From an uncultured Syntrophobacteraceae bacterium (GTDB lineage: Bacteria > Desulfobacterota > Binatia > UBA9968): a stretch of DNA of 64,000 bases. Location of the stretch: assembly GCA_964572145.1 (NCBI GenBank), contig CAZNES010000004.1, positions 13,443 through 77,442 of the forward strand, written 5' to 3'. Below the pieces are notes generated by a model. The model saw only the letters and a program-made list of their open reading frames with translations, searched no databases and was not told the origin of the DNA. The translations under genes and the position numbers were made by a program. Positions 28,842 through 61,800 of this stretch are shown here, one piece after another (positions within the stretch are counted from its first letter, which is position 1; every line of letters begins with the position of its first letter).

Positions 28842-28906
28842 AGGCGTCGGGACTTTCTCAGTATCACATCTCAACATATCGGTGAAAAATTTGACTGGAG
28901 GTTTCT

Positions 28907-29794: not shown

Positions 29795-29821
29795 TAGAAC
29801 GGCGAGGAATCCTAACTGCCC

Positions 29822-31222: not shown

Positions 31223-31463
31223 TGACCGTCGACTTTGCCGGTCATCTTTGTCCCACCTCAGACTGCCGAAGCTCTCTTTCCCCAATCTGGAACTCTTCGA
31301 AAGTTCTTTAGCCGTCGCCTTTTTGGCCGGTAAGGGCAGAGCCGTGCGCCGGATTCGATGTGGCGCGAAAACGCGTGAGCAGCCGCAACCCGCGGCTTGG
31401 GCTTCTGACGCAATTGAAAGGCTCCCAGCGCGCGATCTGGAAAAACTTGCCGTTGAGGGCTCT

Positions 31464-33382: not shown

Positions 33383-34234
33383 ATGGAAGTCACGGAACCA
33401 CACCCGGCCATTGATATCCCGGTTGTTCGGATCGACGCCTTGGACAACCGGTTTTTATGGGAACTGCGGGAAATGTGGCAGCACCGGGAACTGCTGTATT
33501 TTCTCATTTGGCGTGAGGTCAAGGTACGGTATAAACAAACCGCCATCGGCATTTGGTGGGCGGTCCTTCAACCCTTCATGATGATGGTGATCTTCGCGGT
33601 CATCTTCGGTAAATTTGCGAACATTCCCTCCGACGGTTTTCCGTATCCGCTTTTTGCCTACACCGCGCTCCTCCCGTGGATATATTTTTCTCAGGCAGTC
33701 ACTCGCAGCGCCTATAGTCTCGTGGGCGACGCGAGTTTGCTCCAGAAAGTTTACTTTCCCCGCTTGATTCTCCCCTTAGCGGCGGTAATTGTGCCGCTGA
33801 TAGATTTTTTGTGTAGTGTTTTGGTGCTGCTAGGCATGCTCTTCTGGTACGGTGTAACACCGACCGCCGCCTGGCTGACCTTGCCGATTTTTTTATTCAT
33901 GGCTTTTTTGACTGCGCTTGCGGTAGGACTTTGGCTGGCGCCGCTGAATGTCCGATATCGGGACGTCAACGTCGCTATCCCCGTTTTAATTCAGTTATGG
34001 ATGTACGCTTCACCGATTGTGTATCCGACGAGCATGGTGCCGGAAAAATGGCGCTTGCTCTACAGTCTCAATCCCATGGTCGGCGTCATCAACGGGTTCC
34101 GGTGGGCTCTGCTGGGGGACGCAACGGTGAATTGGTGGCCGGTCTTAGTCAGCGTCTTGATGATCGCGCTCGTTTCGTTCGTTGGAATCATTATCTTCAG
34201 GCGCGCCGAGCCGTTTTTGGCGGATATTATCTAA
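33383..34234 (+). CDS. ABC-2 type polysaccharide export permease (Wzm), copy 1
   Basis: 6 TM; YRDVNVAIPVLIQLWMYASPIVYP ABC-2 signature. Confidence 0.85.
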   Translation: MEVTEPHPAIDIPVVRIDALDNRFLWELREMWQHRELLYFLIWREVKVRYKQTAIGIWWAVLQPFMMMVIFAVIFGKFANIPSDGFPYPLFAYTALLPWIYFSQAVTRSAYSLVGDASLLQKVYFPRLILPLAAVIVPLIDFLCSVLVLLGMLFWYGVTPTAAWLTLPIFLFMAFLTALAVGLWLAPLNVRYRDVNVAIPVLIQLWMYASPIVYPTSMVPEKWRLLYSLNPMVGVINGFRWALLGDATVNWWPVLVSVLMIALVSFVGIIIFRRAEPFLADII

Positions 34235-34253
34235 CAAAGCGCGGTCAGCTTTT

Positions 34254-35507
34254 ATGAGCGATATCGCTATTAGCGCAGAAAATCTGAGTAAGCGATACTT
34301 TATCAATGTGCCGAGGTTTCGCCACGATACCTTGCGTGATCGTATCATCGATGTGGCGAGCGGGTTGTTTTCCCGCAACGGTTATTCCTCGCCGTCCGAG
34401 GGAAGCGTCTGGGCATTGAGCCAAGTCTCCTTTGAAATAACGAAGGGACAAGTCGTCGCGGTCATCGGTCGCAACGGCGCCGGAAAAAGCACTCTGTTGA
34501 AGATACTGTCTCGTGTGACCAAGCCGACGAGCGGTTCTGCGGTGATCCACGGCCGAGTCGGATCTCTCCTGGAGGTCGGCACGGGGTTTCACCCGGAGCT
34601 GACCGGCAGAGAGAACATCTATCTAAGCGGCGCCGTCTTGGGCATGCGCAAGGCTGCTATAGAGCGACATTTCGATGAGATCGTCGATTTTTCCGGTGTG
34701 GATAAGTTCATCGACACTCCCGTAAAGCGCTACTCGAGCGGTATGTTTGTCCGGCTGGCTTTTGCCGTGGCGGCGCATCTCGATTCCGAAATCCTCATCG
34801 TCGATGAAGCGCTGGCGGTGGGCGACGCGGCGTTTCAAAAAAAATGTTTGGGAAAGATGGGGGATATAGCGAAGGGTGGAAGAACCATCTTGCTCGTCAG
34901 CCATAACATGGGATTTGTTTCCAGCCTGACTCAATCTGCCATGGTCTTGGAAAACGGCAGGCAAAAGTTCTTCGGTGATACCGCCCGAGCCGTTCCCGTG
35001 TACCTGGCGAACGTCTCAAAAAAGGAGCGGGAAAATCTATTGGAGCATGCAAACCGCGCGCCGGGCATGAGACCGGCCTTCATCTCAGCCGGTCTCAGTG
35101 ACAGCGATGGACTAGCGCGGGACATCTTCTCCACGGGCGAAGAGTGGTCTCTGGAAATGGAATATGCTTGCGTGGACGAGGTAAAACTAGCCGGCGCCGG
35201 ATTCACGATCTCGACATCCGATGGCATTCTTGTGGGCGAGTTGAATTCCTTCATGTGTTTGCCGCCCCCTCATCGAATCGCGCCAAAAGGCAAAATACGA
35301 TTTTGCATCCCCGAGCTGCCGCTGTGTCCGGGGTCTTATACCGTAAGCCTCTTTTTGGTGAAGGACGATACTTTCCGCTACGATAGTATAGATTGCGCCC
35401 TCGATTTTTCGGTCGAGAAGAACGATCCGACCGGCACGGGATTCGTCCTTACACGAGCGCATGGCCTGTGCGCGTTAAAAGGCTCCTTCCAAGATACGGA
35501 TGGATAG
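34254..35507 (+). CDS. Polysaccharide ABC exporter ATP-binding protein (Wzt) with C-terminal carbohydrate-binding-like domain, copy 1
   Basis: ATG at 34254; Walker A GRNGAGKST, signature YSSGMFVRLAF, Walker B ILIVDEALAVGD; ~150-aa C-terminal extension. Confidence 0.9.
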   Translation: MSDIAISAENLSKRYFINVPRFRHDTLRDRIIDVASGLFSRNGYSSPSEGSVWALSQVSFEITKGQVVAVIGRNGAGKSTLLKILSRVTKPTSGSAVIHGRVGSLLEVGTGFHPELTGRENIYLSGAVLGMRKAAIERHFDEIVDFSGVDKFIDTPVKRYSSGMFVRLAFAVAAHLDSEILIVDEALAVGDAAFQKKCLGKMGDIAKGGRTILLVSHNMGFVSSLTQSAMVLENGRQKFFGDTARAVPVYLANVSKKERENLLEHANRAPGMRPAFISAGLSDSDGLARDIFSTGEEWSLEMEYACVDEVKLAGAGFTISTSDGILVGELNSFMCLPPPHRIAPKGKIRFCIPELPLCPGSYTVSLFLVKDDTFRYDSIDCALDFSVEKNDPTGTGFVLTRAHGLCALKGSFQDTDG

Positions 35508-35590
35508 CGCGTTGGCGACTTAAACCCATCCACAGCCGAGCATTGCCCTAGCGGGAGATTTGAGGCAGTTCAAGTATTACGGGAGATCTG

Positions 35591-36514
35591 ATGGAAGTTA
35601 CGACTCAATCTGATGATGCTTCCAGCCGCGTGCCCGGTGAAAAGGAAACGATGTCTAGGTTCGACGTGCGCGACGAAAAACAAGAAAAGCCGGATCTGCC
35701 GAGCATTCGTATCGAGCATTCCCGCGGTTGGGTTTCGCTTCGACTCCGGGAGCTATGGGATCATCGAGAGCTTCTTTATTTCCTGGTCTGGCGTGACGTG
35801 AAAGTACGCTACAAGCAGGCGGCCCTTGGCGCCACCTGGACAGTAATCCAACCGCTGATCACGATGATGATCTTTACCGTGATCTTCAGCTATTTTGCGA
35901 AAATATCTACGGCGGGGGTGCCTTACCCGCTTTTTGTTTTCAGCGCTCTGTTGCCTTGGTACTATTTTGCGTCGGCGTTCGCCCGCGGCGGCAACAGCCT
36001 TTTGGGCGACGCCCATCTAATCGAGAAGGTTTACTTTCCGCGCTTGATTCTTCCGCTTTGCGCTGTGACCACCCCGCTGATGGATTTCTTGTTCAGTTTT
36101 GTAGTTCTGATTGGCCTGATGTTCTGGTTCGGAATCACGCCTACGTGGAACGTAATGGTCTTACCTTTTTTCGTTTGTCTAGCGTTGCTGACCGCTCTTG
36201 CAACGTGTCTTTGGCTCGCGCCTCTCAATGTCAGATACCGCGACATCGGCCACACCATCCCGTTTCTGATTCAGGTATGGATGTATGCTTCTCCGGTGGT
36301 TTATCCGGTGAGCATGATTCCGGAGCGATGGCGCTTGCTCTACAGCCTGAACCCGATGGTAGGCGTGATCGAGGGCTTCCGCTGGGCACTATTCGGCAAC
36401 AAGAGACCGGCTTTCGACTTGATGGCGGTGAGCGTCGCGATGGTGTTGCTGCTGCTTTGGGGCGGAGCGATGTTCTTTCGGCGGATGGAACGGACGTTTG
36501 CGGATATCGTATGA
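35591..36514 (+). CDS. ABC-2 type polysaccharide export permease (Wzm), copy 2
   Basis: ~65% identical to the 33383-34234 product over the core; the start may be an internal Met. Confidence 0.85.
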   Translation: MEVTTQSDDASSRVPGEKETMSRFDVRDEKQEKPDLPSIRIEHSRGWVSLRLRELWDHRELLYFLVWRDVKVRYKQAALGATWTVIQPLITMMIFTVIFSYFAKISTAGVPYPLFVFSALLPWYYFASAFARGGNSLLGDAHLIEKVYFPRLILPLCAVTTPLMDFLFSFVVLIGLMFWFGITPTWNVMVLPFFVCLALLTALATCLWLAPLNVRYRDIGHTIPFLIQVWMYASPVVYPVSMIPERWRLLYSLNPMVGVIEGFRWALFGNKRPAFDLMAVSVAMVLLLLWGGAMFFRRMERTFADIV

Positions 36515-37138
36515 TGACAGCCGACGGTCGACCGCCGACGGTAGACGGACGACGGCCGGTGAGAGACCGCCGACAGTAGACGGTCCATGGCCCTTGGTCC
36601 ATCGTCCACGGTCCGCCATCGTCAGTCCCTCGTCAACCGTCTGCGGTCAGCGGTCGGTATTTTGTTAAATGTACAAATTTGAGAAATTAGAAGTTTACCA
36701 GTTGGCTCTCCAATACACGGATATGATTTACAGCCTCACGGAAAAGCTTCCGAAGAACGAGGAACACAATCTGAAGTCTCAAATAATACGGGCCGCCACT
36801 TCGGTCGTGCTCAATATTGCCGAAGGCTCGACCGGTCAGAGTGATGCGGAGCAAAGACGGTTCCTGGGTATGGCAATTCGTTCGCTTTTGGAAACTGTAG
36901 CCTGCCAACAACTCATTGAACGTCGTCGATATGTTAACAAGGAAGAACTATCTAAGGATTACGAGTTTAGCCAGATGCTTTACGCGAAGCTCCAAGCCAT
37001 GCGTCGCTCGCTCCAAAAAAGCAGGAATGAAAAGTGAAGACCCTTATTGGCTGTCCGCCGTCGCCCATCAATGGTCAGCGATCTTCTTCATCAGTCTACC
37101 GTCCTCTGTCTACCGTCAATCGTCGTTAATTTAATACC
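36515..37138. mobile_element. Inverted-repeat-flanked cassette carrying a four-helix-bundle (23S rRNA IVS family) gene, inserted between wzm2 and wzt2
   Basis: Upstream CGACGGTAGACGG / CGACAGTAGACGG plus GACCGCCGACGG; downstream the reverse complements GTCTACCGTC (x2) and CCGCCGTCGCC; lower local GC. Confidence 0.35.
36669..37037 (+). CDS. Four-helix-bundle protein (23S rRNA intervening-sequence protein family)
   Basis: MYKFEKLEVYQLALQYTDMIYSLTEKLPKNEEHNLKSQIIRAATSVVLNIAEGS... matches the family consensus (FExLxVWQ.A..L...IY..T..FP..E.Y.L.SQ..RAA.S...NIAEG). Confidence 0.75.
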   Translation: MYKFEKLEVYQLALQYTDMIYSLTEKLPKNEEHNLKSQIIRAATSVVLNIAEGSTGQSDAEQRRFLGMAIRSLLETVACQQLIERRRYVNKEELSKDYEFSQMLYAKLQAMRRSLQKSRNEK

Positions 37139-38479
37139 ATGAGCGACATTGCCATCAGAGTCGAGAATCTCTCCAAGCAGTATAAAATCGGAGTGGCCCA
37201 GTACCGTCACGATTCCATACGGGATCATCTGACGGAGTGGGTTAAGTCGCTGTTCGTTCGCAATGGCACTCCCTCTCCCTCAACTCTCGTCACTGAACCC
37301 TCCGCTCTTGGCCCTCAGGCCTCAGCGCCCAGCGGTCATCCGTCTTCGGTCGACGGTCGTTCAGATACCATTTGGGCCCTCAAGGATGTCTCGTTCGAAG
37401 TCAAGCAGGGCGAAGTAATCGGCATCATCGGTCGCAACGGCTCAGGAAAAAGCACGCTGCTCAAGATTCTCTCCCGCATCACCGAACCGACCAGCGGTTT
37501 TGTCGACATTCACGGGCGGGCAGGCTCCCTGCTGGAAGTCGGCACAGGCTTTCACCGCGATCTTACCGGGAGGGAAAATATCTATCTCAACGGCGCTATT
37601 CTGGGAATGAAGAAGGCGGAGATTGAGCGTAAATTCGACGAGATCGTTGATTTCTCGGGGGTGGAGAAGTTCATTGACACGCCGGTCAAGCGATATTCGA
37701 GCGGCATGAACGTACGCCTGGCTTTCGCGGTTGCGGCTCATTTGGACCCGGAGATTCTAATCTTGGACGAGGTGCTGGCCGTCGGCGACGCCGATTTTCA
37801 GAAGAAGTGCCTGGGCAAGATGGGCGATGTAGCCAAGGAAGGTCGAACGGTCTTGTTCGTCAGTCATAATGCTGTGGCAATAAAGAATCTGTGTCACAAA
37901 GGTATCATGCTCGAAGGGGGCACAATTGCATTCAATGGCCAAGCGGAAGACGCCGTGGATTTTTATCTTGAGAGCGTAGAGAAAAAAGAGCAGATTTGCA
38001 GATCCCCTGTGGTTGATCTGAGCAAGGCTCCGGGAAGGCGCGCCGGCTTCGCTCCGTTACTACAACGGCTCGAGCTTGTCACGGAAGGCGACCGGCCCGT
38101 AACAGACGGTCTGCCGGTCGGCGCTTCGTTAACGGCGCGGATACATTTTCGGTTAGAAAAACCCGCCTCGAACGTTCACACGAACATCGCGTTCGACAAC
38201 CTCTTTGGACAACGAATCTTTCATGCCCACAGCGGTTATGATGCCGATTACCAACAAGTGACGCGGGTAGGTGACCAAAGATGTATATGTGAGATCCCCT
38301 GTCTTAATCTGATTCCTGGGGAGTACAAGATTAAAGTAGGGCTCGATATCGACGGTGCTCCTGGGGACGGTGTAGAAGATGCCGTCCGTCTTAGGATTTT
38401 TGAGTCTGATTTTTACGGCACTGGAAAAATTCCACGGAGCGGTACGTTCGTTATGAAGCATTACTGGCGCTTCATCTAA
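37139..38479 (+). CDS. Polysaccharide ABC exporter ATP-binding protein (Wzt) with C-terminal carbohydrate-binding-like domain, copy 2
   Basis: Walker A GRNGSGKST, signature YSSGMNVRLAF, Walker B ILILDEVLAVGD; C-terminal domain divergent from copy 1. Confidence 0.9.
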   Translation: MSDIAIRVENLSKQYKIGVAQYRHDSIRDHLTEWVKSLFVRNGTPSPSTLVTEPSALGPQASAPSGHPSSVDGRSDTIWALKDVSFEVKQGEVIGIIGRNGSGKSTLLKILSRITEPTSGFVDIHGRAGSLLEVGTGFHRDLTGRENIYLNGAILGMKKAEIERKFDEIVDFSGVEKFIDTPVKRYSSGMNVRLAFAVAAHLDPEILILDEVLAVGDADFQKKCLGKMGDVAKEGRTVLFVSHNAVAIKNLCHKGIMLEGGTIAFNGQAEDAVDFYLESVEKKEQICRSPVVDLSKAPGRRAGFAPLLQRLELVTEGDRPVTDGLPVGASLTARIHFRLEKPASNVHTNIAFDNLFGQRIFHAHSGYDADYQQVTRVGDQRCICEIPCLNLIPGEYKIKVGLDIDGAPGDGVEDAVRLRIFESDFYGTGKIPRSGTFVMKHYWRFI

Positions 38480-39584: not shown

Positions 39585-40448
39585 ATGAAAGATATCACGG
39601 ACGGCGATCTTAAAGACCGCATTCCACTAGCTGCAAAAAAAAACGAGAGCCATCGCTCAACCATCAAGGTAGGTGGAGTGGTTATCGGAGGGGAGCGGGT
39701 CGTGGTCATGGCGGGACCGTGCGCGGTGGAAAGCCAGGAGCAGGTGCTTGAGATCGCTCATCGTGTTAAAGCTGCTGGCGCAGCGGTTCTTCGGGGTGGC
39801 GCGTACAAGCCTCTAACTTTCCCGTATCGCACGGATAGCTCTTTCGAGCTGCGGGAGCTTGGGCTCAAGTACCTTGCTGAGGCCGGCAAAGCCGCCGGTT
39901 TGCCCGTGGTCACCGAGGTTATGGACCTACGCCTAGTGGAGACCGTAGCAGAATTCGCAGATATCCTCCAGATTGGCGCACGCAACATGCAGAACTTCCC
40001 TCTATTGGAGGAAGTAGCCAAAACCAGGAAGCCGGTGATGCTCAAGCGTCACTTTGGGTGCAGCTTGCGGGACTGGCTAGGAGCAGCCGAGTATATCCTC
40101 TATGGCGGAAATCCTAATGTGATCCTCTGTGAGCGCGGTGTGGTCGCGCCCCATACCCACGCCGTCGCCTCGAGGTTCATTGTGGACATTCAGGCGGTAC
40201 CCGCGGTTAAAGAGTATTCGCACCTTCCGGTCATCGTCGATCCCAGTCACTCCACCTTCAAACGCAGCTATGTTGCTCCCGTCGCCCGTGCTGCGATAGC
40301 TGCCGGCGCAGACGGAATCATCATAGACGTACATCCCGTTCCCGAAAAGGCGGCGGTCGATCCGCTTCAGGCGCTCTCCTACGAAAGCTTCTCCGGCTTG
40401 ATGCAGGAGCTTCGCGGCATAGCTCGTGTGATGGGTCGGAATATCTGA
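39585..40448 (+). CDS. 3-deoxy-7-phosphoheptulonate (DAHP) synthase class I-beta-like PEP aldolase with altered phosphate-binding motif
   Basis: [58 protein letters not shown] all match DAHPS-I-beta/KDO8PS-superfamily motifs; the canonical KPRTS is replaced by KPLTF (39807-39821). Confidence 0.8.
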
Positions 40449-40457
40449 GCGCAAGAG

Positions 40458-41567
40458 ATGCTGGATGAACTTCAATCATACTTGAGTAATCGCCTTGATC
40501 CTTTAACCGGTACGCACAAGTGGGTCGCGGGTATTATCGGCGATCACCCGTCCCAATACGCCAAGAGCCCATCGTTGTGGAACCAAGCTTTTACGACGTT
40601 AGGGCTCGACGGGATTTTCCTTCCGTTCGATGTGGATGCCCCGAATCTCCGCTCCTTGCTGGAGATCTTGCGCCAGAGCGAACACGTCGTCGGTTTCAGT
40701 GTGACGGTTCCTTACAAGGTAGAAGTAATTAAGTTCCTCGACGATCTGGACCAGAAGGCGCGTCAGATCGGCGCCGTCAACACGGTGGCGCGAACTCAGG
40801 ACGGAAAACTTGTAGGCTACAACACCGATGGTCAAGGGTTTCTGGACATGCTGACCAAGCCGCTGCCCCGTCAGCAATGTCCATTCTTTGAAAAATTAGA
40901 GGGACGGCATGCATTGTTGATTGGAGCAGGCGGCGCCGCCAGAGCCGTAGCTTTCTTCCTGGCCGAAGCCCTCGGAGATAAGGGTCGTCTTACGATTGCC
41001 AATCGCGATTCCAATAAGGCCCGAGAGCTGGTCAACGCCGTGAAGGATACGAATTCTTCTAATGTGGACTACATCGCCGAGACGGATATCCACGGAACGG
41101 TCTCAACCTTAGACCTGATTATCAATGCCACTACCAAGGGCCAGAGTGGAGTCCGAAGGCTGGTTGGGAATCGAGCGACGTGCCTGGAGCCCTATTCTGC
41201 CTTGGCGCCTGCGAACCCCGTCGAGCTTGATGGGGAATCATTTTCCAGCGAGTCTGCGTTCTACCGTTCCTGGTATCAGCAGTCCTACCCAGACATAGAG
41301 ACCAACGTTCGTCTAGCCAATAAGATTTTGACGGCGACACCGATGAATACTGCCTTTGTCGATCTTATTTATTCACCCCTGGAGACGCGGACACTCGCGA
41401 TGGCTCGTTGGAGTGGTCACCGAGTCTTGAACGGGAGAGAGATGAATGTCCGTCAGGCAGCCGACGCCTTTGTCAACCGTGTCATGAGTCCCTACTTAAC
41501 CGCGATGGGATGGGATCTGCGGAGTACTTATCGACGCGTCTCTGAGATTATGGGCCAAGTTTGGTAA
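40458..41567 (+). CDS. Shikimate dehydrogenase (AroE)-family NAD(P)-dependent dehydrogenase with ~100-aa C-terminal extension
   Basis: AKSPSLWN, SVTVPYK (catalytic Lys), GYNTDGQG (catalytic Asp), LLIGAGGAARAV, DLIINATTKG motifs. Confidence 0.8.
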   Translation: MLDELQSYLSNRLDPLTGTHKWVAGIIGDHPSQYAKSPSLWNQAFTTLGLDGIFLPFDVDAPNLRSLLEILRQSEHVVGFSVTVPYKVEVIKFLDDLDQKARQIGAVNTVARTQDGKLVGYNTDGQGFLDMLTKPLPRQQCPFFEKLEGRHALLIGAGGAARAVAFFLAEALGDKGRLTIANRDSNKARELVNAVKDTNSSNVDYIAETDIHGTVSTLDLIINATTKGQSGVRRLVGNRATCLEPYSALAPANPVELDGESFSSESAFYRSWYQQSYPDIETNVRLANKILTATPMNTAFVDLIYSPLETRTLAMARWSGHRVLNGREMNVRQAADAFVNRVMSPYLTAMGWDLRSTYRRVSEIMGQVW

Positions 41568-42607
41568 GGGAATTCATAACCCACATGCAAAGTCTCGACA
41601 GGATCCATAAGAAACCCACTGTCGTGGCGGCTTTGGAAAGCAACCACAACGGAGACCTATCTCTAGCCAAGCGGATGGTGGATATAGCAGTTGACTGCGG
41701 ATGCGACGCAATTAAGATCCCGGTGCGGCGGGTCAAAGAATGCTACACGGAAGAAACGCTTCAACAGCCCAACTACAAGCATCCCGAGCTCGGCGCTACC
41801 TACGGCGATGCCTTAGAGAGATTGGAACTAAAAGCGGACGCTTTGCGCTCCGTTCGCGATCATTGCAGAGGACGCATCTCCTTCATCGGCGCTCCGTATG
41901 ACTTGTCTTCGATGGACTTGCTCGGAGATCTAGACGTGGATGGCTACCAGATTGATCCGCCGTTGCTTTGCCACCAACCGTTAGTTCAAGCGATAGCCGA
42001 TCGGCAAAAAAAAGTTCTGGTGTGTGTCGGCATGTGCTCGGAGCAAGAACTCGCGGCGGCACTACAGATTCTGAAGAACGTGCCCGTTATCCTGCTCCAC
42101 TGCGTTATGGCCAAATCTCTTCGCCTGGAGGATACCGCGCTCGACTATATTCCTTACCTGCGTCGGCGTTTTGGATGCGAGATAGGATACCTGGGATTTG
42201 AGGACGGCATTCATGCCGCGCTAACGGCCTACACGATCGGCGCGACGACTATTGAGAAGATATTCACAATCGATCGCCATCTGCCCGGCCCTGGACGCGC
42301 CAATAGCCTCGACCGAGAAGAACTCAGGGCTCTGGTTCAGGGTTTAGTGGCATTGGAATCCTCGCTCAAGCCCTCCGGTCCCCGCCAGCTCCTTCCCGTG
42401 GAGTTGGAGACATTCACCGATGAACGGTGCTCAGTCGTAGCCGCTCGTCCTCTAAAGGCGGGCACTACCATTCAAGCTGATATGCTTACGGTTAAGGCGG
42501 CGCTCAATGGAGTCAGTCCCCAGTTGCTCTCTTGGCTGGAGGGCAAGCGGTTGCTTTTCGACTTGCCGTTAGACGCGCCGATTACCTTCGGGGTCGTGGA
42601 TCTGTGA
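41561..42607 (+). CDS. NeuB-family nonulosonic/ulosonic acid synthase (PEP-dependent) with C-terminal SAF domain
   Basis: NHNGDLSLAKRMVDIAVDCGCDAIK NeuB signature; C-terminal SAF/antifreeze-like domain. Confidence 0.8.
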   Translation: MVREFITHMQSLDRIHKKPTVVAALESNHNGDLSLAKRMVDIAVDCGCDAIKIPVRRVKECYTEETLQQPNYKHPELGATYGDALERLELKADALRSVRDHCRGRISFIGAPYDLSSMDLLGDLDVDGYQIDPPLLCHQPLVQAIADRQKKVLVCVGMCSEQELAAALQILKNVPVILLHCVMAKSLRLEDTALDYIPYLRRRFGCEIGYLGFEDGIHAALTAYTIGATTIEKIFTIDRHLPGPGRANSLDREELRALVQGLVALESSLKPSGPRQLLPVELETFTDERCSVVAARPLKAGTTIQADMLTVKAALNGVSPQLLSWLEGKRLLFDLPLDAPITFGVVDL

Positions 42608-43281
42608 TTTCTGTAGTTATCCGCACCAAGAATGAGGAACGGTGGCTCCGGCGATGTCTCACGGCCGTGGCGCTTCAGACATATCGTCCTCTGGAAGTTA
42701 TCGTGGTGGATAATGCCTCTACCGACGGCACCGTCGGTATCGCCAAGGAGTTCGGATGTCGCATCCTTTCAATCGATGACTGCGATTTCAGTTTCGGACG
42801 CGCCCTCAACCAAGGTATTGCAGTTGCAGAAGGAGAATTGATCGCTATTCTCTCCGGCCATTGCATTCCGTTGAATGAAAGATGGCTCTCCTGCCTCGCC
42901 GCGTCGTTCGCGGATGAGCTGGTGGCGGGTGTCTATGGGCGGCAGGAACCGTTGCCCGATAGCGATCCTTTCGACAAACGGGATCTATGGACGACCTTCG
43001 GCCTCGAGCGGCGCGTGCAAACCCGAGACATTTTTTTTCACAATGCAAATTCCAGCATCCTGCGGCGCGTGTGGAACGAGGTCCCTTTCGACGAAGAAAT
43101 TTCCGGCGTGGAGGACCGCGATTGGGCGAAAAAAGTCCTAGGAAGAGGTTACAAGATTATTTATGAGCCCAGCGCCAGCGTGTATCACCATCATGGTATT
43201 CACCAGGGCCGGAATGTGGAGCGGGCCGAACGTGTCGTACGGGTCATCGAACTGATCAACAATGGGGGAAGAAAAGAGTGA
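42604..43281 (+). CDS. Glycosyltransferase family 2
   Basis: GTG start overlapping the neuB-like stop; ISVVIRTKNE...VIVVDNASTDGT...DCD GT-A motifs. Confidence 0.7.
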   Translation: MISVVIRTKNEERWLRRCLTAVALQTYRPLEVIVVDNASTDGTVGIAKEFGCRILSIDDCDFSFGRALNQGIAVAEGELIAILSGHCIPLNERWLSCLAASFADELVAGVYGRQEPLPDSDPFDKRDLWTTFGLERRVQTRDIFFHNANSSILRRVWNEVPFDEEISGVEDRDWAKKVLGRGYKIIYEPSASVYHHHGIHQGRNVERAERVVRVIELINNGGRKE

Positions 43282-43985
43282 CTGAGAGATCTCATGTCGT
43301 ATGCATCATCCCAGCTCGGGGGGGATCAAAAGGGCTTCCGCGAAAGAATGTTTGCAGGCTCGCAGGGAAACCGCTGATCGCTTACTCCGTCGAGGCCGCT
43401 CGAAAGTGCCCGCTGATTGATCGAGTCATCGTTTCTACGGACGACGAGGAGATCGCTGATATTGCCAGATCCTATGGAGCTCAGGTGCCTTTCAAGCGGC
43501 CGGCTGAGTTGGCCGTCGATGACGCCACGACGGAAAGCGTCCTCCAGCACGCGGTGCGCTGGTTGGAAGAAAATGAAAAGTATTCGGTTGATATCGTGGT
43601 CTTTCTCCAGGCCACCGACATTTTTCGCAAGCAATGGATGCTGAACGAGGTGGTTCAACGAGTGTTGAGGGACTCTACCATTGACTCTGCCTTCGTCGCG
43701 TTCGAGACGCACAAAAACTTCTGGCGCATTGTCGACAAGCAGCCAGTTCGGTTGGCGGACATACCTTATGGAGCACGTCAAAAGCGCGAGCACGTGTACC
43801 GGGAGGATACGGGCATAGCTTGTGCCACCAGGGCAGAGTTTATCAAGCAGGGAAAAAGATTGGGTCCGCGGGTTTCTATTGTGGCTAATACCGATGCCGC
43901 CTCCTTTATCGATATTGAGGATGAATTTACGTTCTGGCTTGCGGAGCAGGTGCTGTTGAGCGGGAAGCGGACGGTGAATGACTAA
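43278..43985 (+). CDS. Acylneuraminate/ulosonate cytidylyltransferase (NeuA/KdsB family), copy 1
   Basis: IIPARGGSKGLPRKN signature; 4-nt overlap with the upstream gene. Confidence 0.8.
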   Translation: MTERSHVVCIIPARGGSKGLPRKNVCRLAGKPLIAYSVEAARKCPLIDRVIVSTDDEEIADIARSYGAQVPFKRPAELAVDDATTESVLQHAVRWLEENEKYSVDIVVFLQATDIFRKQWMLNEVVQRVLRDSTIDSAFVAFETHKNFWRIVDKQPVRLADIPYGARQKREHVYREDTGIACATRAEFIKQGKRLGPRVSIVANTDAASFIDIEDEFTFWLAEQVLLSGKRTVND

Positions 43986-44719
43986 TGAGTGAGAGAATTA
44001 TCGCTATCATTCCCATCCGGGGCTCGGACGATGAATTCAAAGAGAGTCCCAGCCCTATGCTGGGGGAAAGGCCTCTCGTAGAGTACACCCTTTTAGCGGC
44101 GAAGGAGGCTCGGCTTCTGGACCGGGTGATTGTGTCCACCGACAGCGAGGCGGTAGCTGACTTCTGCCGGCGATATGGGGTTGAAGTTCCCTTCATCAGG
44201 CCAGCTTCGCTAGCCGAACCGACCGCTACCGTTACGGATGTTTTACTTCACTGCGTTGAATGGCTGGAGAGCAATGAGCACGATCACCCCGACTGGGTCA
44301 TCAAGTTGGAAATCACTCATCCTTTCAGGCCGACGGGCATCATCGATACCCTGATCAAGACCGCGCTGATGCAGAATGTGGATTCGGCTTTCCTCGCCTA
44401 TGAGGAAGTTCATGGCTTTTGGACTCTGGATCATGACGGCAGTCCCCGACTGGTAGGCGAGGAGGGGAATCTTCCCAGAAAAACCCGCAAGCCTTTTTAT
44501 AGAGACTCAAGCGGGCTAGTCGCGATGACTCGCGTGGCCAATCTCAAAGCAGGCAAGCTCTATGGTAACAATCTTGGACTGATTCCGTTTCGGGACCTCT
44601 TTGCCATCGTCGATACGCACGAAGGCGCCGGTTCATCCTATCGGGAACGAATGGGATTTCGGCTCGGCGAAATCCTTGCAGCTGAATTTAACAAAACTGT
44701 TTCCTGGAAGGGAAAATGA
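43985..44719 (+). CDS. NeuA/KdsB-family cytidylyltransferase paralog with divergent N-terminal nucleotide-binding loop, copy 2
   Basis: IAIIPIRGSDDEFKESPSPMLGERPL replaces the PARGGSKG loop; the rest aligns with copy 1 (DRVIVSTD..., VDSAFLAYE). Confidence 0.6.
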   Translation: MSERIIAIIPIRGSDDEFKESPSPMLGERPLVEYTLLAAKEARLLDRVIVSTDSEAVADFCRRYGVEVPFIRPASLAEPTATVTDVLLHCVEWLESNEHDHPDWVIKLEITHPFRPTGIIDTLIKTALMQNVDSAFLAYEEVHGFWTLDHDGSPRLVGEEGNLPRKTRKPFYRDSSGLVAMTRVANLKAGKLYGNNLGLIPFRDLFAIVDTHEGAGSSYRERMGFRLGEILAAEFNKTVSWKGK

Positions 44720-46603: not shown

Positions 46604-47731
46604 ATGATGGAAGGGGCGAGGAATGTCACGGCGGACCTTTTGGCAAAGGGATTGTTTAGTCGTTATTTGGAGTGTCCGATTTGCGGTTCTACCGACCGAA
46701 TTCATACGGATACTCCCTTCCAATCCAATGGATACATCGCCGCAGCGGCCCGAGGGCTCGGACTTTCGGAAAAAGACTTGGTTGATTCCATGGAGGGGCA
46801 GAAGTGTCTTGCCTGCGGGGCTCTTTATTTTGATCCGTGGTTAAGCGGTTCGTTCCAAAGGGAGTTGTACGAAGAGCTTTCGCCTCAACACAACATGGGC
46901 TGGGAGATCTTCTGGTCAATCATCAAAAATCCGTTAGAGCGTCCGCGCGACGCGGTTTTATGCGAAATGATCCGGGAAAAAATTCCCACTCTTAACACGT
47001 ATGCCGAGGTGGGCTGTCCTTTTATTGGGCTCATTCCGTATATCAGCCTTCGGGAATATCAGTACGGATCAAGGACCTTCATGGATTACCCGGGAACCTA
47101 CACCATCAAAAGTTTCATCGGAGCGCATCCGAGAGTCGGAGGAGTGCTTAATCTTGAGCGTCTGGGCAGCTACCTGGCGCGATTTTTCAATCGGCTTCAG
47201 CTCCTGAGAGCGTTTTCATTCAAGCGGCTCATCAAGCGAAGTCTTATCCGATTCGGGCAGGCACGAGAGATTCGGCGTCACGGGCCCGATTGCTACTACA
47301 TCCGGCACAGCTCGAACCTCCTGTGGGGCAAGAACTGTAAATCTCTGGGCGTGGATTGTCCGACAGCGCTTAAGAATGTTTTTGGTGCCCGGATCATTAG
47401 CTTCGAGGACCTACAAACAGAGAACGTCCGCTTCGACCTTGTAGGGATCTTCAATTCTCTGGACCACTATAAAAATCCGATCGGACTTCTGCATCAACTC
47501 TTCCAGTTTACAGATTATATCTACCTCGAAGGGCACTGCGCTGGAGCGGATTGGGGAAAACAGCACCTCTACTTCTTTGAAAAAGAAACCTTCACCGCCT
47601 TGCCTCGGCTCCTTCCATTAGGGGAGGCAATGGGCGATTTCGAAGGACGACCCTCTCAACATTGCTACAGTATTTTGCTCAGAAAAAAGAACGGCCACCA
47701 AGCCAAAGAGCAATTGGTGGCGAGTTTGTGA
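46604..47731 (+). CDS. Putative methyltransferase with N-terminal Cys4 zinc-ribbon
   Basis: CPICGS...CLACG zinc ribbon followed by a Rossmann-like region (YAEVGCPFIG). Confidence 0.35.
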   Translation: MMEGARNVTADLLAKGLFSRYLECPICGSTDRIHTDTPFQSNGYIAAAARGLGLSEKDLVDSMEGQKCLACGALYFDPWLSGSFQRELYEELSPQHNMGWEIFWSIIKNPLERPRDAVLCEMIREKIPTLNTYAEVGCPFIGLIPYISLREYQYGSRTFMDYPGTYTIKSFIGAHPRVGGVLNLERLGSYLARFFNRLQLLRAFSFKRLIKRSLIRFGQAREIRRHGPDCYYIRHSSNLLWGKNCKSLGVDCPTALKNVFGARIISFEDLQTENVRFDLVGIFNSLDHYKNPIGLLHQLFQFTDYIYLEGHCAGADWGKQHLYFFEKETFTALPRLLPLGEAMGDFEGRPSQHCYSILLRKKNGHQAKEQLVASL

Positions 47732-47868
47732 CTTCGGTCTTGTCGTTCAGAGTGAGCGGCGTAAATTCCGCACGGCTTTCTTTTTTCCACAAGTTGCCTG
47801 CAAGGTTTAATTAGCTAGAACGAAGAGGCCATTTGCCTTCGCGCCAGCGCAGTCAGGAAGGAAGTAAA

Positions 47869-48801
47869 ATGAACCCCAAACGGCTTGCCAAGAGTTTTGC
47901 TCATTGGACTATCCCGCCGGGGTTTCAAGACATATTACGGTCTTGCCTTGTAAGAAACGGAGGTATGCCCGCCACTGACCCCCAAGAGGACGCCGCTATC
48001 CTGGAAAAGCAAGCAATCCCGAACCGCGAAAAGCAAGCAATCCTGAACCGCAATATGAAGTTTCTGAATAAACATAGAGGTCGGCGATGCTTTGTGTTGG
48101 CGACGGGTCCCTCGATTTATAAGCAAGATCTGAGGCCTCTTCAGAACGAGTGGTGCATCGCTGTCAATGAGTTTTACAAGCACGAGCATTATAGCCTCAT
48201 TAAGCCCGCTTATTATACATTGCCGCCTACTTGGACAACCCGCCTAGACATGGGAAAAAGATTGAGAAGATTAGGAGAATTGAAGCAACTTTCTCAAGAC
48301 GAGATATTCTTTTTTGACGTGACCGACAAAAAGTGGGTGGAGAGTTCGAACTTTGCCGACAATCTGGAGCGGGTGCACTACCTCGACCTTAGAGATGATT
48401 TTACCCCCTCAAGTATAGACCTTACGGGATGCATGCCAGGCCCGCAGTCTACGGCATTAATTGCGACGTGGATTGCCATGTATATGGGGTTTTCTGAGGT
48501 ATATCTGCTCGGATGTGACTACGATGTTTTGTGGAAATGGGATGGGTCCTCACGCTACCTTCGAAAGGACCTTTACAAGCATTTCTACCAAGGTGCGCCT
48601 ACTGTAGGCTACGAGCCGATGGACCTTGATGGCGAACTTCGCGGGCACCTACGGCTGAGAGAACAGTATCGGTGGACTGATGATATTGCGGCGCGCCAGA
48701 ACACAAGGCTTGTTAACGCTAATCCACAGAGCTACCTGGATATCCTCCCCAGAGTGCCGTTAGAGTCAGTTCTTCTACCAGAATCCCCCGGCGTACGATG
48801 A
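47869..48801 (+). CDS. Cst-II/GT42-like (DUF115-related) CMP-ulosonic acid transferase candidate
   Basis: FVLATGPSI / CIAVNEFY / YLLGCDYD align with the AGNGPSL / CNQFY / YLSGIDFY motifs of Campylobacter Cst-II-type sialyltransferases; ATG at 47869 after AGGAAGGAAG. Confidence 0.55.
   Translation: MNPKRLAKSFAHWTIPPGFQDILRSCLVRNGGMPATDPQEDAAILEKQAIPNREKQAILNRNMKFLNKHRGRRCFVLATGPSIYKQDLRPLQNEWCIAVNEFYKHEHYSLIKPAYYTLPPTWTTRLDMGKRLRRLGELKQLSQDEIFFFDVTDKKWVESSNFADNLERVHYLDLRDDFTPSSIDLTGCMPGPQSTALIATWIAMYMGFSEVYLLGCDYDVLWKWDGSSRYLRKDLYKHFYQGAPTVGYEPMDLDGELRGHLRLREQYRWTDDIAARQNTRLVNANPQSYLDILPRVPLESVLLPESPGVR
48004..48051 (+). repeat. Perfect-but-one 24-nt in-frame tandem duplication (2 copies) inside the GT42-like gene
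   Basis: GAAAAGCAAGCAATCC(C/T)GAACCGC x2 encoding EKQAIPNR-EKQAILNR. Confidence 0.7.
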
Positions 48802-48931: not shown

Positions 48932-49915
48932 GTGCTGAGCATTTTTGCGTTTCCCAAGCCGTTCCGGGGGCACATCGGCGTTATCCAACGCAATGCCATC
49001 GGCAGTTGGAAGCAACTGCGACCGCAATGCGAGATTTTTCTTTTCGGCGATGAAGAGGGGACCGCCGAAGTCGCCAAAGAACTTGGTGTAGTTCACGTTC
49101 CCGACATTGCCCGCAACGAGTTCGGCACCCCTCTGCTAAACCATGTCTTTAGTAAAGGCGAGCAGTTGGCGACCGAGCGGATTCACTGTTACGTCAACTG
49201 CGACATCATTCTCGGCGAAAGCTTCATTCCAGTTATCCAGCAAGTGGCCCGGTGGCGTCCTCGCTTTCTCGTGGTGGGCCGATGCTGGGACATGGACATC
49301 AAAGAACCCATCACGTTCCAGAAGACAACTTGGGAGAATGAGCTGGCCGCAATTCTGGCCCAACGCCCGAGCATGCGGGGCGAGTGGGCGATCGACTATT
49401 TTGTATTCCCCCGAGGTCTCTACGGGCAGATGCCGCCATTTGCGCTGGGAAGGGCCAAGTTCGATAACTGGCTGGTTTGGAAAGCCGGCGATCTCAAAGT
49501 GCCCGTAGTGGATGCCACACCGGTTCTAAGAGCTGTTCATCAAAACCACGATTATTCGCATGTCGCTGGGGGAAAAGATTACACGCTCTACGGCGAGGAA
49601 GCCATGCGGAACCAAGAGTATGCCGGCGGCGAAGCACACTGCTATGGGATTCATCATGCGACGCACAAGTTTCAAACCCGCGGCATCCAGCGCAACTGGC
49701 ACAGATATCGTTTGCAGTTTGACCGGCGTATGGAGCGGATGAAAGAGCATATGCATCCGATGATCCGGCGTATGCAACGGATGAAAGTCCGGCTGACGCC
49801 GACTTTCTGGCGGGTCATGGAGCGGACCCGACCGATCCGCCATGCTCTCGGCCTGCACGGCACGAACTGGAACAAGCTCAGGAACGTGCACAGGAAGAAA
49901 GAACGGATTCAGTGA
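48932..49915 (+). CDS. Hypothetical protein (possible GT-A-like transferase) with Arg/Met-rich repetitive C-terminal tail
   Basis: 327-aa ORF; the C-terminus RRMERMKEHMHPMIRRMQRMKVR is encoded by an imperfect ~30-nt tandem repeat. Confidence 0.35.
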   Translation: MLSIFAFPKPFRGHIGVIQRNAIGSWKQLRPQCEIFLFGDEEGTAEVAKELGVVHVPDIARNEFGTPLLNHVFSKGEQLATERIHCYVNCDIILGESFIPVIQQVARWRPRFLVVGRCWDMDIKEPITFQKTTWENELAAILAQRPSMRGEWAIDYFVFPRGLYGQMPPFALGRAKFDNWLVWKAGDLKVPVVDATPVLRAVHQNHDYSHVAGGKDYTLYGEEAMRNQEYAGGEAHCYGIHHATHKFQTRGIQRNWHRYRLQFDRRMERMKEHMHPMIRRMQRMKVRLTPTFWRVMERTRPIRHALGLHGTNWNKLRNVHRKKERIQ

Positions 49916-58835: not shown

Positions 58836-61800
58836 ATGCTCGAACCGACAGGGAACACGGCCAAAATCTTATTGCTGTCTTTGGCTGTTCTCTGTCTCGG
58901 TATCAGCGCCGGCATGGCAGCCCAGACTGATCCTGCTGTGGTAGGGCGGTGGTCTTCCGTGCCGGATTTGCCCTTCTACCCCGTACACCTCCATGTGCTT
59001 CCCACGGGCGAGGTGATGATTTGGCCAGGGGATGGAGGGATTTCTGGTAACGACCCACGGCTCTGGGATCCGGTCACGCAGGCCACCACCCCTTTGGCCA
59101 AGCCTGGCTATGATGTTTTCTGTTCCGGCCATTCCTTCCTGGCAGACGGCCAATTATTCGTCGCAGGCGGACACATTATAAATAACGTTGGGCTTCCGAA
59201 GGCGAGCGCCTATAATCCATTCACGGATACCTGGACTGCTCTGCCTAACATGAACGCAGGACGTTGGTATCCTACAAGCACCACATTGGCGAACGGCGAC
59301 GCGTTGGTAGTCTCCGGGAGTATTGATACAACCGTGGGCGCTAATCCGCTGCCCCAGGTTTTCCAGGTAACGACCGGCACTTGGCGTGACCTCACGAATG
59401 CGCAACTGAGCATGGATCTATACCCGCGGATGCACGTGGCGCCAAACGGCAAGGTGTTCAATTCCAGCCCGACTACAGTCACACGCTACCTCGACACCTC
59501 TGGGACCGAAGCCTGGACGGCGGTGGCCAATCGCAGTCTCTTCCGGGACTTCGGATCGTCTGTGTTGTATGACGATGGGAAAATCTTGATCATGGGCGGC
59601 GGAGACCCACCCACTAAAACAGCCGAGGTCATCGATCTGAACGCGGCGTCTCCCGCCTGGAGGTCCGTGGCTTCGATGGCCAACGCCCGCCGACAACTGA
59701 ACGCTACGATCCTGCCGGACGGCAAGGTGCTGGTGACCGGCGGCACTAGCGGGCCGGGGTTCAACAACGCCAGCTTTCCCGTCTATGCCGCTGAAATGTG
59801 GGACCCGGCGACCGAGCTATGGACAACGATGACCAGTGCCCAGATTCCGCGGCTCTATCACTCGGCTGCTGCCCTGCTGCCTGACGGGCGCCTTATCAGC
59901 ACCGGAGGAAATGGCTACCCACAAACGGAGGTCTACGAGCCGCCGTATTTATTCAAGGGAGCTCGGCCCGGGATCACTTCGGCGCCCGCGGGCGTGGCCT
60001 ACGGGGACACGTTCTTCGTGCAGACGCCGGATGCCGCCGGCATCACGCAGGTTACCTGGATACGGCTCCCCTCGGTGACACATGCGTTCAATACGGAGCA
60101 ACGGATCAACCGTTTGAGTTTTTCGCAGACAGCGGGGGGGTTAAACGTAGTGGCGCCCTCTAACCCGAACCTGGCTCCGGTAGGGTATTACATGCTGTTC
60201 ATCCTCAACAGTGCCGGCGTGCCGTCGGTCGCTCAAATCGTACGAATCAATACCGCACCACCTGGACCGGCTCCCGTTCCCACGTTGAGTTCGCTGTCGC
60301 CGAACAGCGCGATCGCAGGCGCTTCAGCCTTTGCCCTAACGGTCAACGGGAGCAACTTCATTGTTGGGTCGATGGTGCAGTGGAATGGGACGGCGCGGCC
60401 CACCACGTTTGTGAGCGCCACGCAGTTGACCGCGGTAATCTCGGCCAATGACCTGGCGGTGGCGGGCGCAGCTTCGGTAGCGGTGGTGAATCCCGCGCCG
60501 GGAGGGGGCGCCTCGAATGCGCTCATCTTCGTAATCAATCAGGCCAGCGTCACGGCAGGGCTGGTGGCCGCCTACGGCTTCGATGAAGGATCGGGCACGA
60601 CGGTGGGAGACTCGTCGGGCAACGGCCACAGCGGCGTCATTTCCGGGACGACGTGGACGACGAGTGGAAAATATGGGAACGCCCTCTCGTTTAACGGCAC
60701 AAATAGTTATGTGAGCGTTGCAAATCCAAATCTTCCCACCGGCGACTACACCTGGTCAGCCTGGATCAATCCCAATCAGACCAGTACCTTTCGGGGAATC
60801 ATGGTCTCCCACGGTACCGGTCCCGGGCAACTAGAAATGGACATAGACTCTGGCCGTGTCGTCATTTACACCAACGACAGCCAACGAATCGTGAGCGCTA
60901 CGATAATTTCCACCGGTGTATGGACTCATCTCGCTCTTTCGCGTGCGGGGAGCACGATCAGGTTATACCTCAATGGAAATCAGGATCCGAATACCGGAAC
61001 AGACGCTGCGGCGCAAAATTTTCAAGGGTGTCCCTTGTTGATAGGCGTGGACAATGATTCCGGCTGCACTGGAAGCCTAAACGGATTTTTTGACGGCCGC
61101 ATTGATGAAGTGCGGATCTACAGCCGTGCGCTGAGTCAGGCAGAGATCCAGAGTTACATGAACACACCGATCACTCCGCCGGGGCCTGACACCACACCGC
61201 CGGACACAAACATCACGGCTACTCCCGCGAACCCGAGCAACAGCAGCAGCGCAAGCTTCAGCTTTACCTCCACCGAGGCAGGCAGCAGCTTTGAGTGTCA
61301 GTTGGACGGGGGAAGCTTTGGCGCCTGCACGAGTCCCAAGAGCTACACCAGTTTGGGCGACGGGAGTCATATCTTCTACGTGCGCGCTATTGACGTTGCC
61401 GGAAACGTTGATCCGACGCCGGCGAGCTACACGTGGACGAGCGATGTTAGCTCTCCTACCATCACCATTACCTCCCCAACTTTGAATCCGACGTATACGA
61501 CCGGCAGCAGCCCGCTGAGTCTTGGTGGGACCGCGAGCGACAACAATGGGGTGACACAGGTCACATGGGCTAACGATCGGGGTGGGAGCGGGACGGCCAG
61601 CGGGACGGCGAGCTGGAGCGCGAGCGGCATAATTCTTCAAAGCGGGACCAACGTTCTTACGGTGATGGCGCGCGATGCAGCCGGCAATACGGGAACGGAC
61701 GCTCTTACCGTGAGTTATACACCACCGCCCCCGCCGCCCGACACGACGCCGCCGGACACGAGCATAACATCTTCACCGAGCAATCCGAGCAGCAGCGCGA

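Follow-up and report, generated by a model that had tools for sequence, protein, structure and literature searches.

A gene for a 310-amino-acid protein, carried on a 64,000-nucleotide stretch of DNA from an uncultured Syntrophobacteraceae bacterium (contig CAZNES010000004.1; this whole stretch is called the window below), was characterized computationally. We consider it probable that its product is a cytoplasmic single-domain enzyme with a sialyltransferase-like variant of the GT-A glycosyltransferase fold, that it moves an ulosonic acid from cytidine monophosphate (CMP) to a glycan, and that a 24-nucleotide tandem repeat in the 5' part of the gene is neutral and fixed. The protein is homologous to known CMP-sugar transferases, and NeuB and CMP-synthetase genes accompany its gene in this locus as they do in most relatives. 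This makes it the strongest candidate for the CMP-ulosonic acid transferase of the adjacent sugar-acid module. A first-pass annotation of this DNA, made from the letters alone, had assigned the gene this role, and no other gene of its kind is present in the window.

Family and fold of the protein

Pfam model PF01973 (Maf_flag10, also known as DUF115) matched the 310-amino-acid protein at 22.1 bits (E 1.5e-4), over residues 193-219 only. PF06002 (CST-I), the model for glycosyltransferase family 42 (GT42), gave no match at E<=10, no NCBIfam model matched, and a PDB sequence search with the protein alone returned no match. The relatives were also searched. PF01973 was matched at E<=0.01 by all 27 close relatives (27/27; best 1.9e-12) and by 120 of 123 diverse relatives (best 5.2e-16), with scores of 90-145 bits in long relatives. 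PF06002 was touched by a single one of the 123, at E 0.0092.

Profiles of the family were compared with the PDB. With the profile of the 27 close relatives, Cst-II ranked first at a non-significant E of 0.28. A second profile, made from the 123 diverse family members and run against all PDB sequences, matched Cst-II (E 1.5e-4) and Cst-I (2p2v; E 2.5e-4), each over about 150 residues, followed by residues 275-433 of the M. magneticum Maf protein 5mu5, which are its PF01973 domain (E 9.1e-4, about 160 residues), the Pasteurella sialyltransferase 9c08 (E 1.9e-3, about 165 residues) and the MptE kinase 8sd5 (E 0.037, 25 residues). Aligning the 115-sequence family alignment with Cst-II, whose sequence was checked against chain 1ro7_A, hhalign gave a probability of 94.6% and an E of 6.5e-8.

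The AlphaFold2 model of the protein has a mean predicted local distance difference test score (pLDDT) of 81 and a predicted template-modelling score of 0.79, with pLDDT above 90 through most of residues 50-220. The best Foldseek match in the PDB was Cst-II (E 5.4e-6, probability 1.0, identity 14%), and the next were Pasteurella sialyltransferase (PmST), M. jannaschii HPPK/MptE 8sd5 (E 5e-4) and human ST6GALNAC2. Model and alignment together place the catalytic domain at residues ~71-300.

The match to 8sd5 bears on another reading, in which the protein is an MptE-like pyrophosphokinase or kinase, or some other nucleotide-dependent enzyme that modifies a small molecule or sugar without being a glycosyltransferase. 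In its favour, PF01973 is named after the archaeal 6-hydroxymethylpterin diphosphokinase MptE, and Foldseek matched 8sd5. The profile match to 8sd5, however, is not significant and is confined to 25 residues, against about 150 residues for the CMP-sugar transferases at E values of 1e-4 to 2e-3. No pterin or folate genes lie nearby, and the strong NeuB/CMP-synthetase linkage and the glycosyltransferase fusions described below also argue against a kinase. We regard this reading as highly improbable.

These results support assignment of the protein to the sialyltransferase-like (GT42/Maf_flag10) fold and superfamily. That it works like Cst-II and Maf is well supported; that it belongs to GT42 by sequence is not. 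The first-pass label of a GT42/DUF115-type transferase thus holds for fold and superfamily, on the evidence of the relatives, the profile and Foldseek. It does not hold for GT42 itself, as PF06002 is unmatched, and the protein's own PF01973 score is low.

The family is large. Among 1.84 billion representatives at 50% identity, 10,863 belong to it at E<=1e-3, 6,193 at E<=1e-10 and 1,229 at E<=1e-30. A sequence search retrieved 37 homologs of the 310-amino-acid protein, and the best relative in the genome collection has 35% identity. Genome-encoded relatives range from 229 to 392 amino acids, with a median of about 291.

Conserved residues and putative active site

The three sequence blocks picked out by the first-pass annotation, GPS(I/L), (C/V)N(E/Q)FY and YL(L/S)G(C/I)D(Y/F), align with Cst-II as it had proposed (HMMER and hhalign). 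The first, RCFVLATGPS, aligns with Cst-II residues 3-12 (GNGPS) and lies in the confident core of the hhalign alignment, where residues 73-108 are paired with Cst-II 3-39. G80, P81 and S82 are invariant, and GPSI (80-83) corresponds to GPSL (10-13) of Cst-II. In the second block, VNEFY (99-103) corresponds to CNQFY (30-34) and N100 to Asn31; position 100 is Ser or Asn in 109 of the 115 family members. Further on, S194 corresponds to Ser132 (Ser or Thr in 95/115), and the YLLGCDY strand (212-218) to YLSGIDF (149-155), with D217 at the position of Asp154 and Asp conserved in 114/115. By residue offset, D217 also falls roughly at D415, which with E324 is a catalytic residue of Maf 5mu5, a correspondence too approximate to be relied on.

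The catalytic His188 of Cst-II, which has His202 as its counterpart in Cst-I, comes after a flexible lid (PMC4202792). The protein studied here has a lid-like segment of low model confidence which contains an HFY motif. The motif is conserved in the family, with His at position 238 in 86, Phe at 239 in 97 and Tyr at 240 in 92 of 115 members. H238 is the best putative general base that the alignment offers. Position 218, which is His in 81/115 family members and Tyr in this protein, would be the second candidate.

Since Cst-II comes top in both fold and profile comparisons and the GPS, NxFY and YLxGxD blocks align with it, a true GT42 sialyltransferase acting on CMP-N-acetylneuraminic acid (CMP-Neu5Ac) might be considered. 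We give this reading very little credence. In addition to the PF06002 results (no match at E<=10 for the protein, one of 123 relatives at E 0.009) and the 14% identity to Cst-II, the NeuB homolog encoded nearby scores 190 bits against a NeuB cut-off of 400 bits, and no NeuC-type epimerase was identified. Neu5Ac is therefore unlikely to be the local product.

Association with sugar-acid genes

Linkage was examined in 80 bacterial and archaeal loci, drawn from unrelated genomes of different species. The distance from the family member to a NeuB homolog is at most 2 kilobases (kb) in 41/80 of them and at most 5 kb in 50/80. When CTP_transf_3 synthetases are counted as well, 61/80 loci have a NeuB or synthetase gene within 5 kb; where the sequence extends 8 kb or more to each side, the proportion is 41/51. 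This linkage is commoner than the presence of a GT2 gene anywhere in the locus, which served as a comparison (25/81 loci).

The whole module of ulosonic acid genes, together with the transferase, recurs in the related loci L002 (62% identity), L084 (60%) and L085 (55-57%). In locus L086, two transferase paralogs (1158-2033 and 10001-10906) each stand directly 3' of their own NeuB gene in a Wzm/Wzt locus. L086 also encodes a fusion of cytidylyltransferase and HAD phosphatase.

In long relatives the domain is joined to GT2, polysaccharide deacetylase, FkbM/S-adenosylmethionine (SAM) methyltransferase, sulfotransferase or epimerase domains. The largest (P0130, P0134, P0143, P0175 and P0176; 1,170-1,800 amino acids) combine two or three PF01973-type domains with GT2, sulfotransferase or epimerase domains. 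These giant multi-domain relatives are possible polymerases of ulosonic-acid-containing polysaccharides.

The 24-nucleotide duplication

Tandem Repeats Finder detected a repeat at 48004-48051 with a period of 24, 2.0 copies, 95% match and no indels; its score of 89 is the top tandem-repeat score in the window. The copies, GAAAAGCAAGCAATCCCGAACCGC and GAAAAGCAAGCAATCCTGAACCGC, are identical at 23 of 24 positions and differ by one mismatch (CCG versus CTG). The unit is a multiple of 3 and is codon-aligned from codon 46, so that EKQAIPNR is followed by EKQAILNR. Of 200 dinucleotide-preserving shuffles of the window, none (0/200) yielded a tandem pair with a period of 15-60 and no more than one mismatch. 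The repeat described in the first-pass annotation is thus real. Two other small tandem repeats in the window are a 14-nucleotide unit present 2.9 times at 36516-36555, just 3' of the second Wzm gene (end at 36514) and 5' of its Wzt gene, and a 15-nucleotide unit present 2.0 times at 61732-61761, inside a gene for a 1,587-amino-acid protein.

Comparison with homologs assigns different origins to the two copies. Copy 2 is the ortholog of the single unit of relatives: at the DNA level it is near-identical to the unit of L085, L084 and L002. The conserved helix 52-65, which packs on the catalytic domain (pLDDT 92 for residues 51-60), starts with this copy, and the nearby N62 and R73 are near-invariant in the homolog alignment. 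Copy 1 is the extra, lineage-specific unit; its Pro codon (CCG) is derived from the Leu codon (CTG) that the single unit of relatives has. The extra 8 residues are missing from all 26 aligned homologs (26/26), each of which has one unit. Immediately 5' of copy 1, GCTATCCTG (GCT ATC CTG, compare GCAATCCTG in copy 2) looks like a degenerate partial third unit or a microhomology.

The insertion lies where the N-terminal linker, which varies in length, meets the first conserved helix. Residues 1-50 have pLDDT values of 44-65. An AxWxxPPGxQD motif is conserved in the N-terminal extension of homologs. Occupancy in the 115-sequence family alignment is below 12% at positions 31-44 of the protein, 41-74% at 45-50 and at least 93% from position 51 onwards.

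The linker has also changed length in relatives. L085 (protein P0004) contains, at about 10096-10131, an 18-nucleotide duplication in two copies (TGACCCTAAAGAGCAAGC and TGACCCTGAAAAGCAAGC, encoding DPKEQA/DPEKQA), which is independent of the 24-nucleotide duplication and occupies the same linker position. L084 has a degenerate version of it (SQEQA/DPEKQS). In L002, the transferase relative carries an in-frame N-terminal duplication or fusion (7301-7510), in which the first 25 codons resemble those of the window (MNPKRLARSFAHWTIPPGVQDLLRS) and are followed by a second, divergent and complete N-terminus (NWKPLAKRFAHWSIPPGVQGLLRS). The DNA of L002 is 89% identical to the window up to window position 47930 and identity collapses beyond it, precisely at the site of this fusion. 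This structure looks like the scar of a recombination event that swapped the transferase allele 3' of a conserved sugar-synthesis block. The independent in-frame changes in L085 and L002 indicate that the linker is evolutionarily plastic.

The first-pass annotation had suggested that the repeat is variable by slipped-strand mispairing. The repeat would then be a contingency locus, whose copy number within a population tunes the N-terminal linker and hence the positioning or the product of the enzyme. The maf genes of Campylobacter are phase-variable, through homopolymeric tracts. In favour of such a locus, the duplication is real and non-random, and the L085 duplication and the L002 duplication or fusion point to recurrent in-frame length change over evolutionary time. 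Against it, simple-sequence contingency loci have many copies of a short unit, or a homopolymer, and changes in copy number there alter the frame or the promoter spacing. The present array has only two copies of a long unit and is already interrupted by a mismatch; moreover, it is in frame, so that on/off switching is impossible. Copy number is also constant in the lineage. All three assemblies (the window, L001 and L083) have two copies. L001 is 99.978% identical to the window, with 0 gaps and 3 single-nucleotide polymorphisms. L083 is 100% identical to it over 21 kb, which suggests the same read set; for this reason L083 was not counted as an independent sample. In addition, the 90%-identity cluster of the protein, from a set of about 15 billion proteins, has no member other than the two-copy sequence, which is present in two start calls. 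A pattern of exact flanks with 1-3 units, which does match the window itself, found no match in metagenome contigs; the search also missed a known JGI contig and is uninformative.

On these limited data, repeat number is fixed across the related genomes, with two copies in the lineage and one unit in other homologs, and the proposal of a variable linker fails; we judge a contingency locus very unlikely. The 24-nucleotide duplication is a recent, lineage-specific in-frame insertion that adds 8 residues, including a helix-breaking Pro. Most likely it is neutral and fixed, neutrality being judged from the comparisons above, and the differences in linker length between lineages are fixed differences and not polymorphism.

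Gene, start codon and expression signals

The open reading frame at 47869-48801 reported in the first-pass annotation is genuine and translates without stops. The coordinates of the gene, of its elements and of the neighbouring features are collected in Table 1.

The mechanically longest open reading frame starts at TTG 47833. Gene calls differ: P0038, from NCBI/Logan, is exactly the 310-amino-acid product, and P0001, from JGI, has 278 amino acids and starts at the internal Met33. ATG 47869 has the best support: the purine-rich stretch AGGAAGGAAG precedes it, the NCBI/Logan call uses it, and the opening 25 residues of the resulting protein (MNPKRLAKSFAHWTIPPGFQD) match up, from residue 1 on, with homologous N-termini. 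Between the gene and its flanking genes, promoter-like and terminator-like sites did not rise above the level of shuffled sequence. Co-transcription with the rest of the long same-strand array is therefore probable.

Table 1. Position in the window of the transferase gene, its sequence elements and neighbouring features.
Feature	Position	Strand	Basis or remark
XrtA/PEP-CTERM (exosortase) exopolysaccharide gene set	23190-33366		Directly 5' of the ABC exporters and the sugar-acid module
Two tandem Wzm/Wzt ABC-exporter pairs	33383-38479		Each Wzt with a C-terminal Wzt_C carbohydrate-binding domain
3-Deoxy-7-phosphoheptulonate (DAHP) synthase gene, then shikimate-dehydrogenase-like gene	39585-41567		NCBIfam
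Divergent NeuB-family ulosonic acid synthase	41561..42607	+	PF03102 at 8e-47
Two tandem CTP_transf_3 cytidylyltransferases	43278..44719	+	PF02348; both below the PseF cut-off
375-amino-acid protein adjoining the transferase gene on its 5' side	46604-47731		Conserved there in L002, L083 and L085
Purine-rich Shine-Dalgarno-like stretch AGGAAGGAAG	47855..47864	+	4 nucleotides 5' of the ATG; read from sequence
Gene for the 310-amino-acid stand-alone PF01973-superfamily (sialyltransferase-like) transferase	47869..48801	+	Translation without stops, homologs, model
N-terminal extension, residues 1-45: AxWxxPPGxQD motif, then length-variable low-confidence linker	47869..48003	+	Alignment, model
GCTATCCTG (A-I-L), adjoining copy 1 on its 5' side	47995..48003	+	Codon view; compare GCAATCCTG in copy 2
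Repeat copy 1, EKQAIPNR, codons 46-53	48004..48027	+	Tandem Repeats Finder; extra lineage-specific unit
Repeat copy 2, EKQAILNR, codons 54-61	48028..48051	+	Ortholog of the single unit of relatives
RCFVLATGPS, residues 73-82: first beta-strand and glycine-rich nucleotide-binding loop	48085..48114	+	Family conservation
CIAVNEFY, residues 96-103	48154..48177	+	hhalign and HMMER; corresponds to Cst-II FRCNQFY
QSTALIATWIAMYMGFSEVYLLGCDYD, residues 193-219	48445..48525	+	Sole stretch of the protein matched by Pfam PF01973 by itself
Low-confidence lid-like segment with HFY motif, residues 220-250	48526..48618	+	pLDDT 56-66 (residues 221-250)
327-amino-acid GT-A-fold (GT2-like) nucleoside diphosphate (NDP)-sugar glycosyltransferase, downstream neighbour	48932..49915	+	Model

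Genomic neighbourhood and proposed function

The transferase gene is part of a long same-strand glycan super-locus. The locus begins with the XrtA/PEP-CTERM exopolysaccharide genes, two Wzm/Wzt pairs, an oxidoreductase gene, the DAHP synthase gene and the shikimate-dehydrogenase-like gene. It continues with the genes for the divergent NeuB, a GT2 enzyme, the two cytidylyltransferases, an HD/DUF6817 protein, a 2-oxoglutarate-Fe(II) (2OG-Fe(II)) oxygenase, the 375-amino-acid protein and the transferase. On the 3' side, the 327-amino-acid protein is followed by a 540-amino-acid methyltransferase-like protein, a pyruvyl transferase, a GT4 enzyme, an epimerase, a GT2 enzyme and a DegT aminotransferase. 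Within the XrtA set, a chain-length determinant, an EpsB_2 priming transferase, a TIGR03006 deacetylase and a TIGR03019 FemAB-like protein score above their NCBIfam cut-offs. The presence of two Wzt_C proteins hints at two exported glycans or at two terminal-cap specificities. At the end of the glycan locus, positions 58836-63599 encode the 1,587-amino-acid secreted protein, which has galactose-oxidase/kelch, Laminin_G_3 (x2), Big_13 and sialidase-N-like domains.

A family hidden Markov model run against the six-frame translation of the window found the 310-amino-acid protein as the only member. The two immediate neighbours were considered as rival CMP-sugar transferases and rejected, since neither resembles it. 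The upstream 375-amino-acid protein has no significant family match and shows weak signals of a SAM-methyltransferase (residues 263-312) and of an N-terminal zinc-ribbon-like region. The downstream 327-amino-acid protein is of the NDP-sugar GT-A type. It has no Pfam or NCBIfam match and belongs to a family of 3,726 homologs in bacteria and archaea; its AlphaFold model (pLDDT 90) has a C-terminal helical extension and matches K4CP, WrtF, SpsA and TarP in Foldseek at E ~1e-6. Judged from this model, it is a member of an unannotated glycosyltransferase family. Thus, the gene studied here is the only one with a sialyltransferase fold in the window.

The donor would be made next to the transferase gene, the NeuB-family synthase being its probable source and the two cytidylyltransferases the probable enzymes of CMP activation of the donor or donors. 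The NeuB-family synthase is below the NeuB and PseI equivalog cut-offs. Neither this synthase nor either cytidylyltransferase comes near any equivalog cut-off, so that no particular ulosonic acid is assigned as the donor. The DAHP synthase gene scores 366 bits with NF006421, against a cut-off of 335, and 112 bits with the Kdo8P synthase model, against 314. L083 and L085 keep its arrangement with the shikimate-type gene, NeuB and cytidylyltransferases, L002 and L084 keep part of it, and the arrangement suggests an unusual ulosonic-acid pathway. In every member of the clade that shares at least 55% identity (the window, L002, L084 and L085), the transferase goes with a single unusual and conserved module, composed of the DAHP synthase, the shikimate-dehydrogenase-like reductase, the divergent NeuB, two tandem cytidylyltransferases, an HD-domain protein and the 2OG-Fe(II) oxygenase. 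A more specific proposal, which we put forward tentatively and consider somewhat doubtful, is that the transferase adds a CMP-activated ulosonic acid not described so far to a polysaccharide that is exosortase-associated and ABC-exported. This sugar could be derived from a heptulosonic acid or hydroxylated, or two acids could be used.

The acceptor might instead be a protein. Experimentally characterised PF01973 glycosyltransferases are all Maf flagellin enzymes (bioRxiv 10.1101/2020.06.03.131540), and the family profile matches Maf 5mu5 (E 9e-4). A Maf-like O-glycosyltransferase would attach the sugar acid to Ser/Thr of a flagellin, S-layer or PEP-CTERM protein, and the XrtA/PEP-CTERM genes at the start of the locus could in principle provide protein substrates. 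However, the protein has 310 amino acids, close to the family median, against 666 for 5mu5, in which the PF01973 domain is central. No flagellar genes were seen in the annotated 23-64 kb of the window; the gene lies among polysaccharide glycosyltransferases, near Wzm/Wzt exporters, and the fusion partners of its relatives are polysaccharide enzymes. We therefore consider a protein acceptor unlikely.

Altogether, the description of the protein as a CMP-ulosonic-acid glycan transferase is well supported by inference, donor class and glycan acceptor being deduced from homology and context. In the proposed mechanism, the adjacent NeuB synthase and the two cytidylyltransferases would supply the CMP-activated ulosonic acid, and the CMP moiety would be bound by the invariant GPS loop, S194 and D217. 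The sugar acid would be moved onto a sugar acceptor of a lipid-linked polysaccharide made by the neighbouring GT2, GT4 and GT-A enzymes, and one of the locus's two Wzm/Wzt ABC transporters would export the product.

Several observations weigh against this assignment. With 22.1 bits, the protein itself misses the PF01973 gathering score of 34.6, the Foldseek TM-scores to Cst-II are just 0.41/0.51, and no invariant His maps confidently onto the general base His188 of Cst-II. The donor module is non-canonical, with its DAHP-synthase-like and shikimate-dehydrogenase-like genes and with equivalog cut-offs unmet by NeuB and the cytidylyltransferases. About a quarter of the relatives have no NeuB or CMP-synthetase gene within reach, and literature searches returned no biochemically characterised short stand-alone PF01973 protein from a polysaccharide locus. 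As to the repeat, its stability is seen in three consensus assemblies, of which the window and L083 are probably one read set.

Comparison with known systems

The protein most closely parallels the GT42 enzymes Cst-II and Cst-I of Campylobacter jejuni (1ro7 and 2p2v). It shares with them the GPS loop, the N-x-F-Y block, the Ser of the T-S-G loop and the YLxGxD strand, as well as similar size, a single domain and the sialyltransferase-like variant GT-A fold; a nonulosonic CMP donor is suggested by its context. It differs by its low identity (~14%), the lack of a PF06002 match and an extra 70-residue N-terminal extension. Moreover, the His188 base is not clearly conserved, and the donor is probably not Neu5Ac. 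The setting is also different, an environmental exopolysaccharide/ABC-exporter locus as opposed to lipooligosaccharide for Cst-II and Cst-I.

The Maf proteins (5mu5, CbMaf and GkMaf) share the PF01973 superfamily with it. Their donors are CMP-pseudaminic acid (CMP-Pse), CMP-legionaminic acid (CMP-Leg), CMP-Neu5Ac and CMP-3-deoxy-D-manno-octulosonate (CMP-Kdo), and they require conserved Ser and acidic residues (bioRxiv 10.1101/2020.06.03.131540). They are about twice as long, have flanking domains and act on flagellin in flagellar loci, whereas the present protein is a bare catalytic domain with a short N-terminal extension, encoded in a polysaccharide locus. Archaeal MptE (8sd5) has the same Rossmann-like core. 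Its chemistry, ATP pyrophosphoryl transfer, differs from that proposed here, and the present protein has neither a significant profile match to it nor a pterin-pathway context. The Pse/Leg transferases of Tannerella forsythia were considered as relatives and set aside, as they are GT-B/TagB-like and hence unrelated.

WbbB-type beta-Kdo transferases (GT99) cap O-polysaccharides in Wzm/Wzt pathways. They may offer a functional analogy, with an ulosonic acid from a CMP donor placed on an ABC-exported glycan and a Wzt protein that has a C-terminal carbohydrate-binding domain; their fold and family are unrelated to those of the protein studied here.

Significance

For nonulosonic and related sugar acids of bacteria, knowledge of the transferases is poor next to that of the enzymes of biosynthesis. 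The protein described here is an ordinary member of a family of about 10,900 representatives, made of short, Maf/GT42-like stand-alone domains in bacteria and archaea. The size of this family, its systematic linkage to NeuB and CMP-synthetase genes in polysaccharide loci and its occasional fusions to polysaccharide enzymes therefore make it a reasonable target for annotation, under a name such as "CMP-ulosonic-acid glycan transferase". Stand-alone members also form a candidate toolbox for glyco-engineering. The duplication in the linker has no demonstrated functional or population-level significance, and the more interesting biology is the conserved non-canonical sugar-acid module of the clade. 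If the proposal of a new ulosonic acid donor were true, this protein would be the first example of a stand-alone PF01973 transferase that is directed at glycans and uses a new donor.

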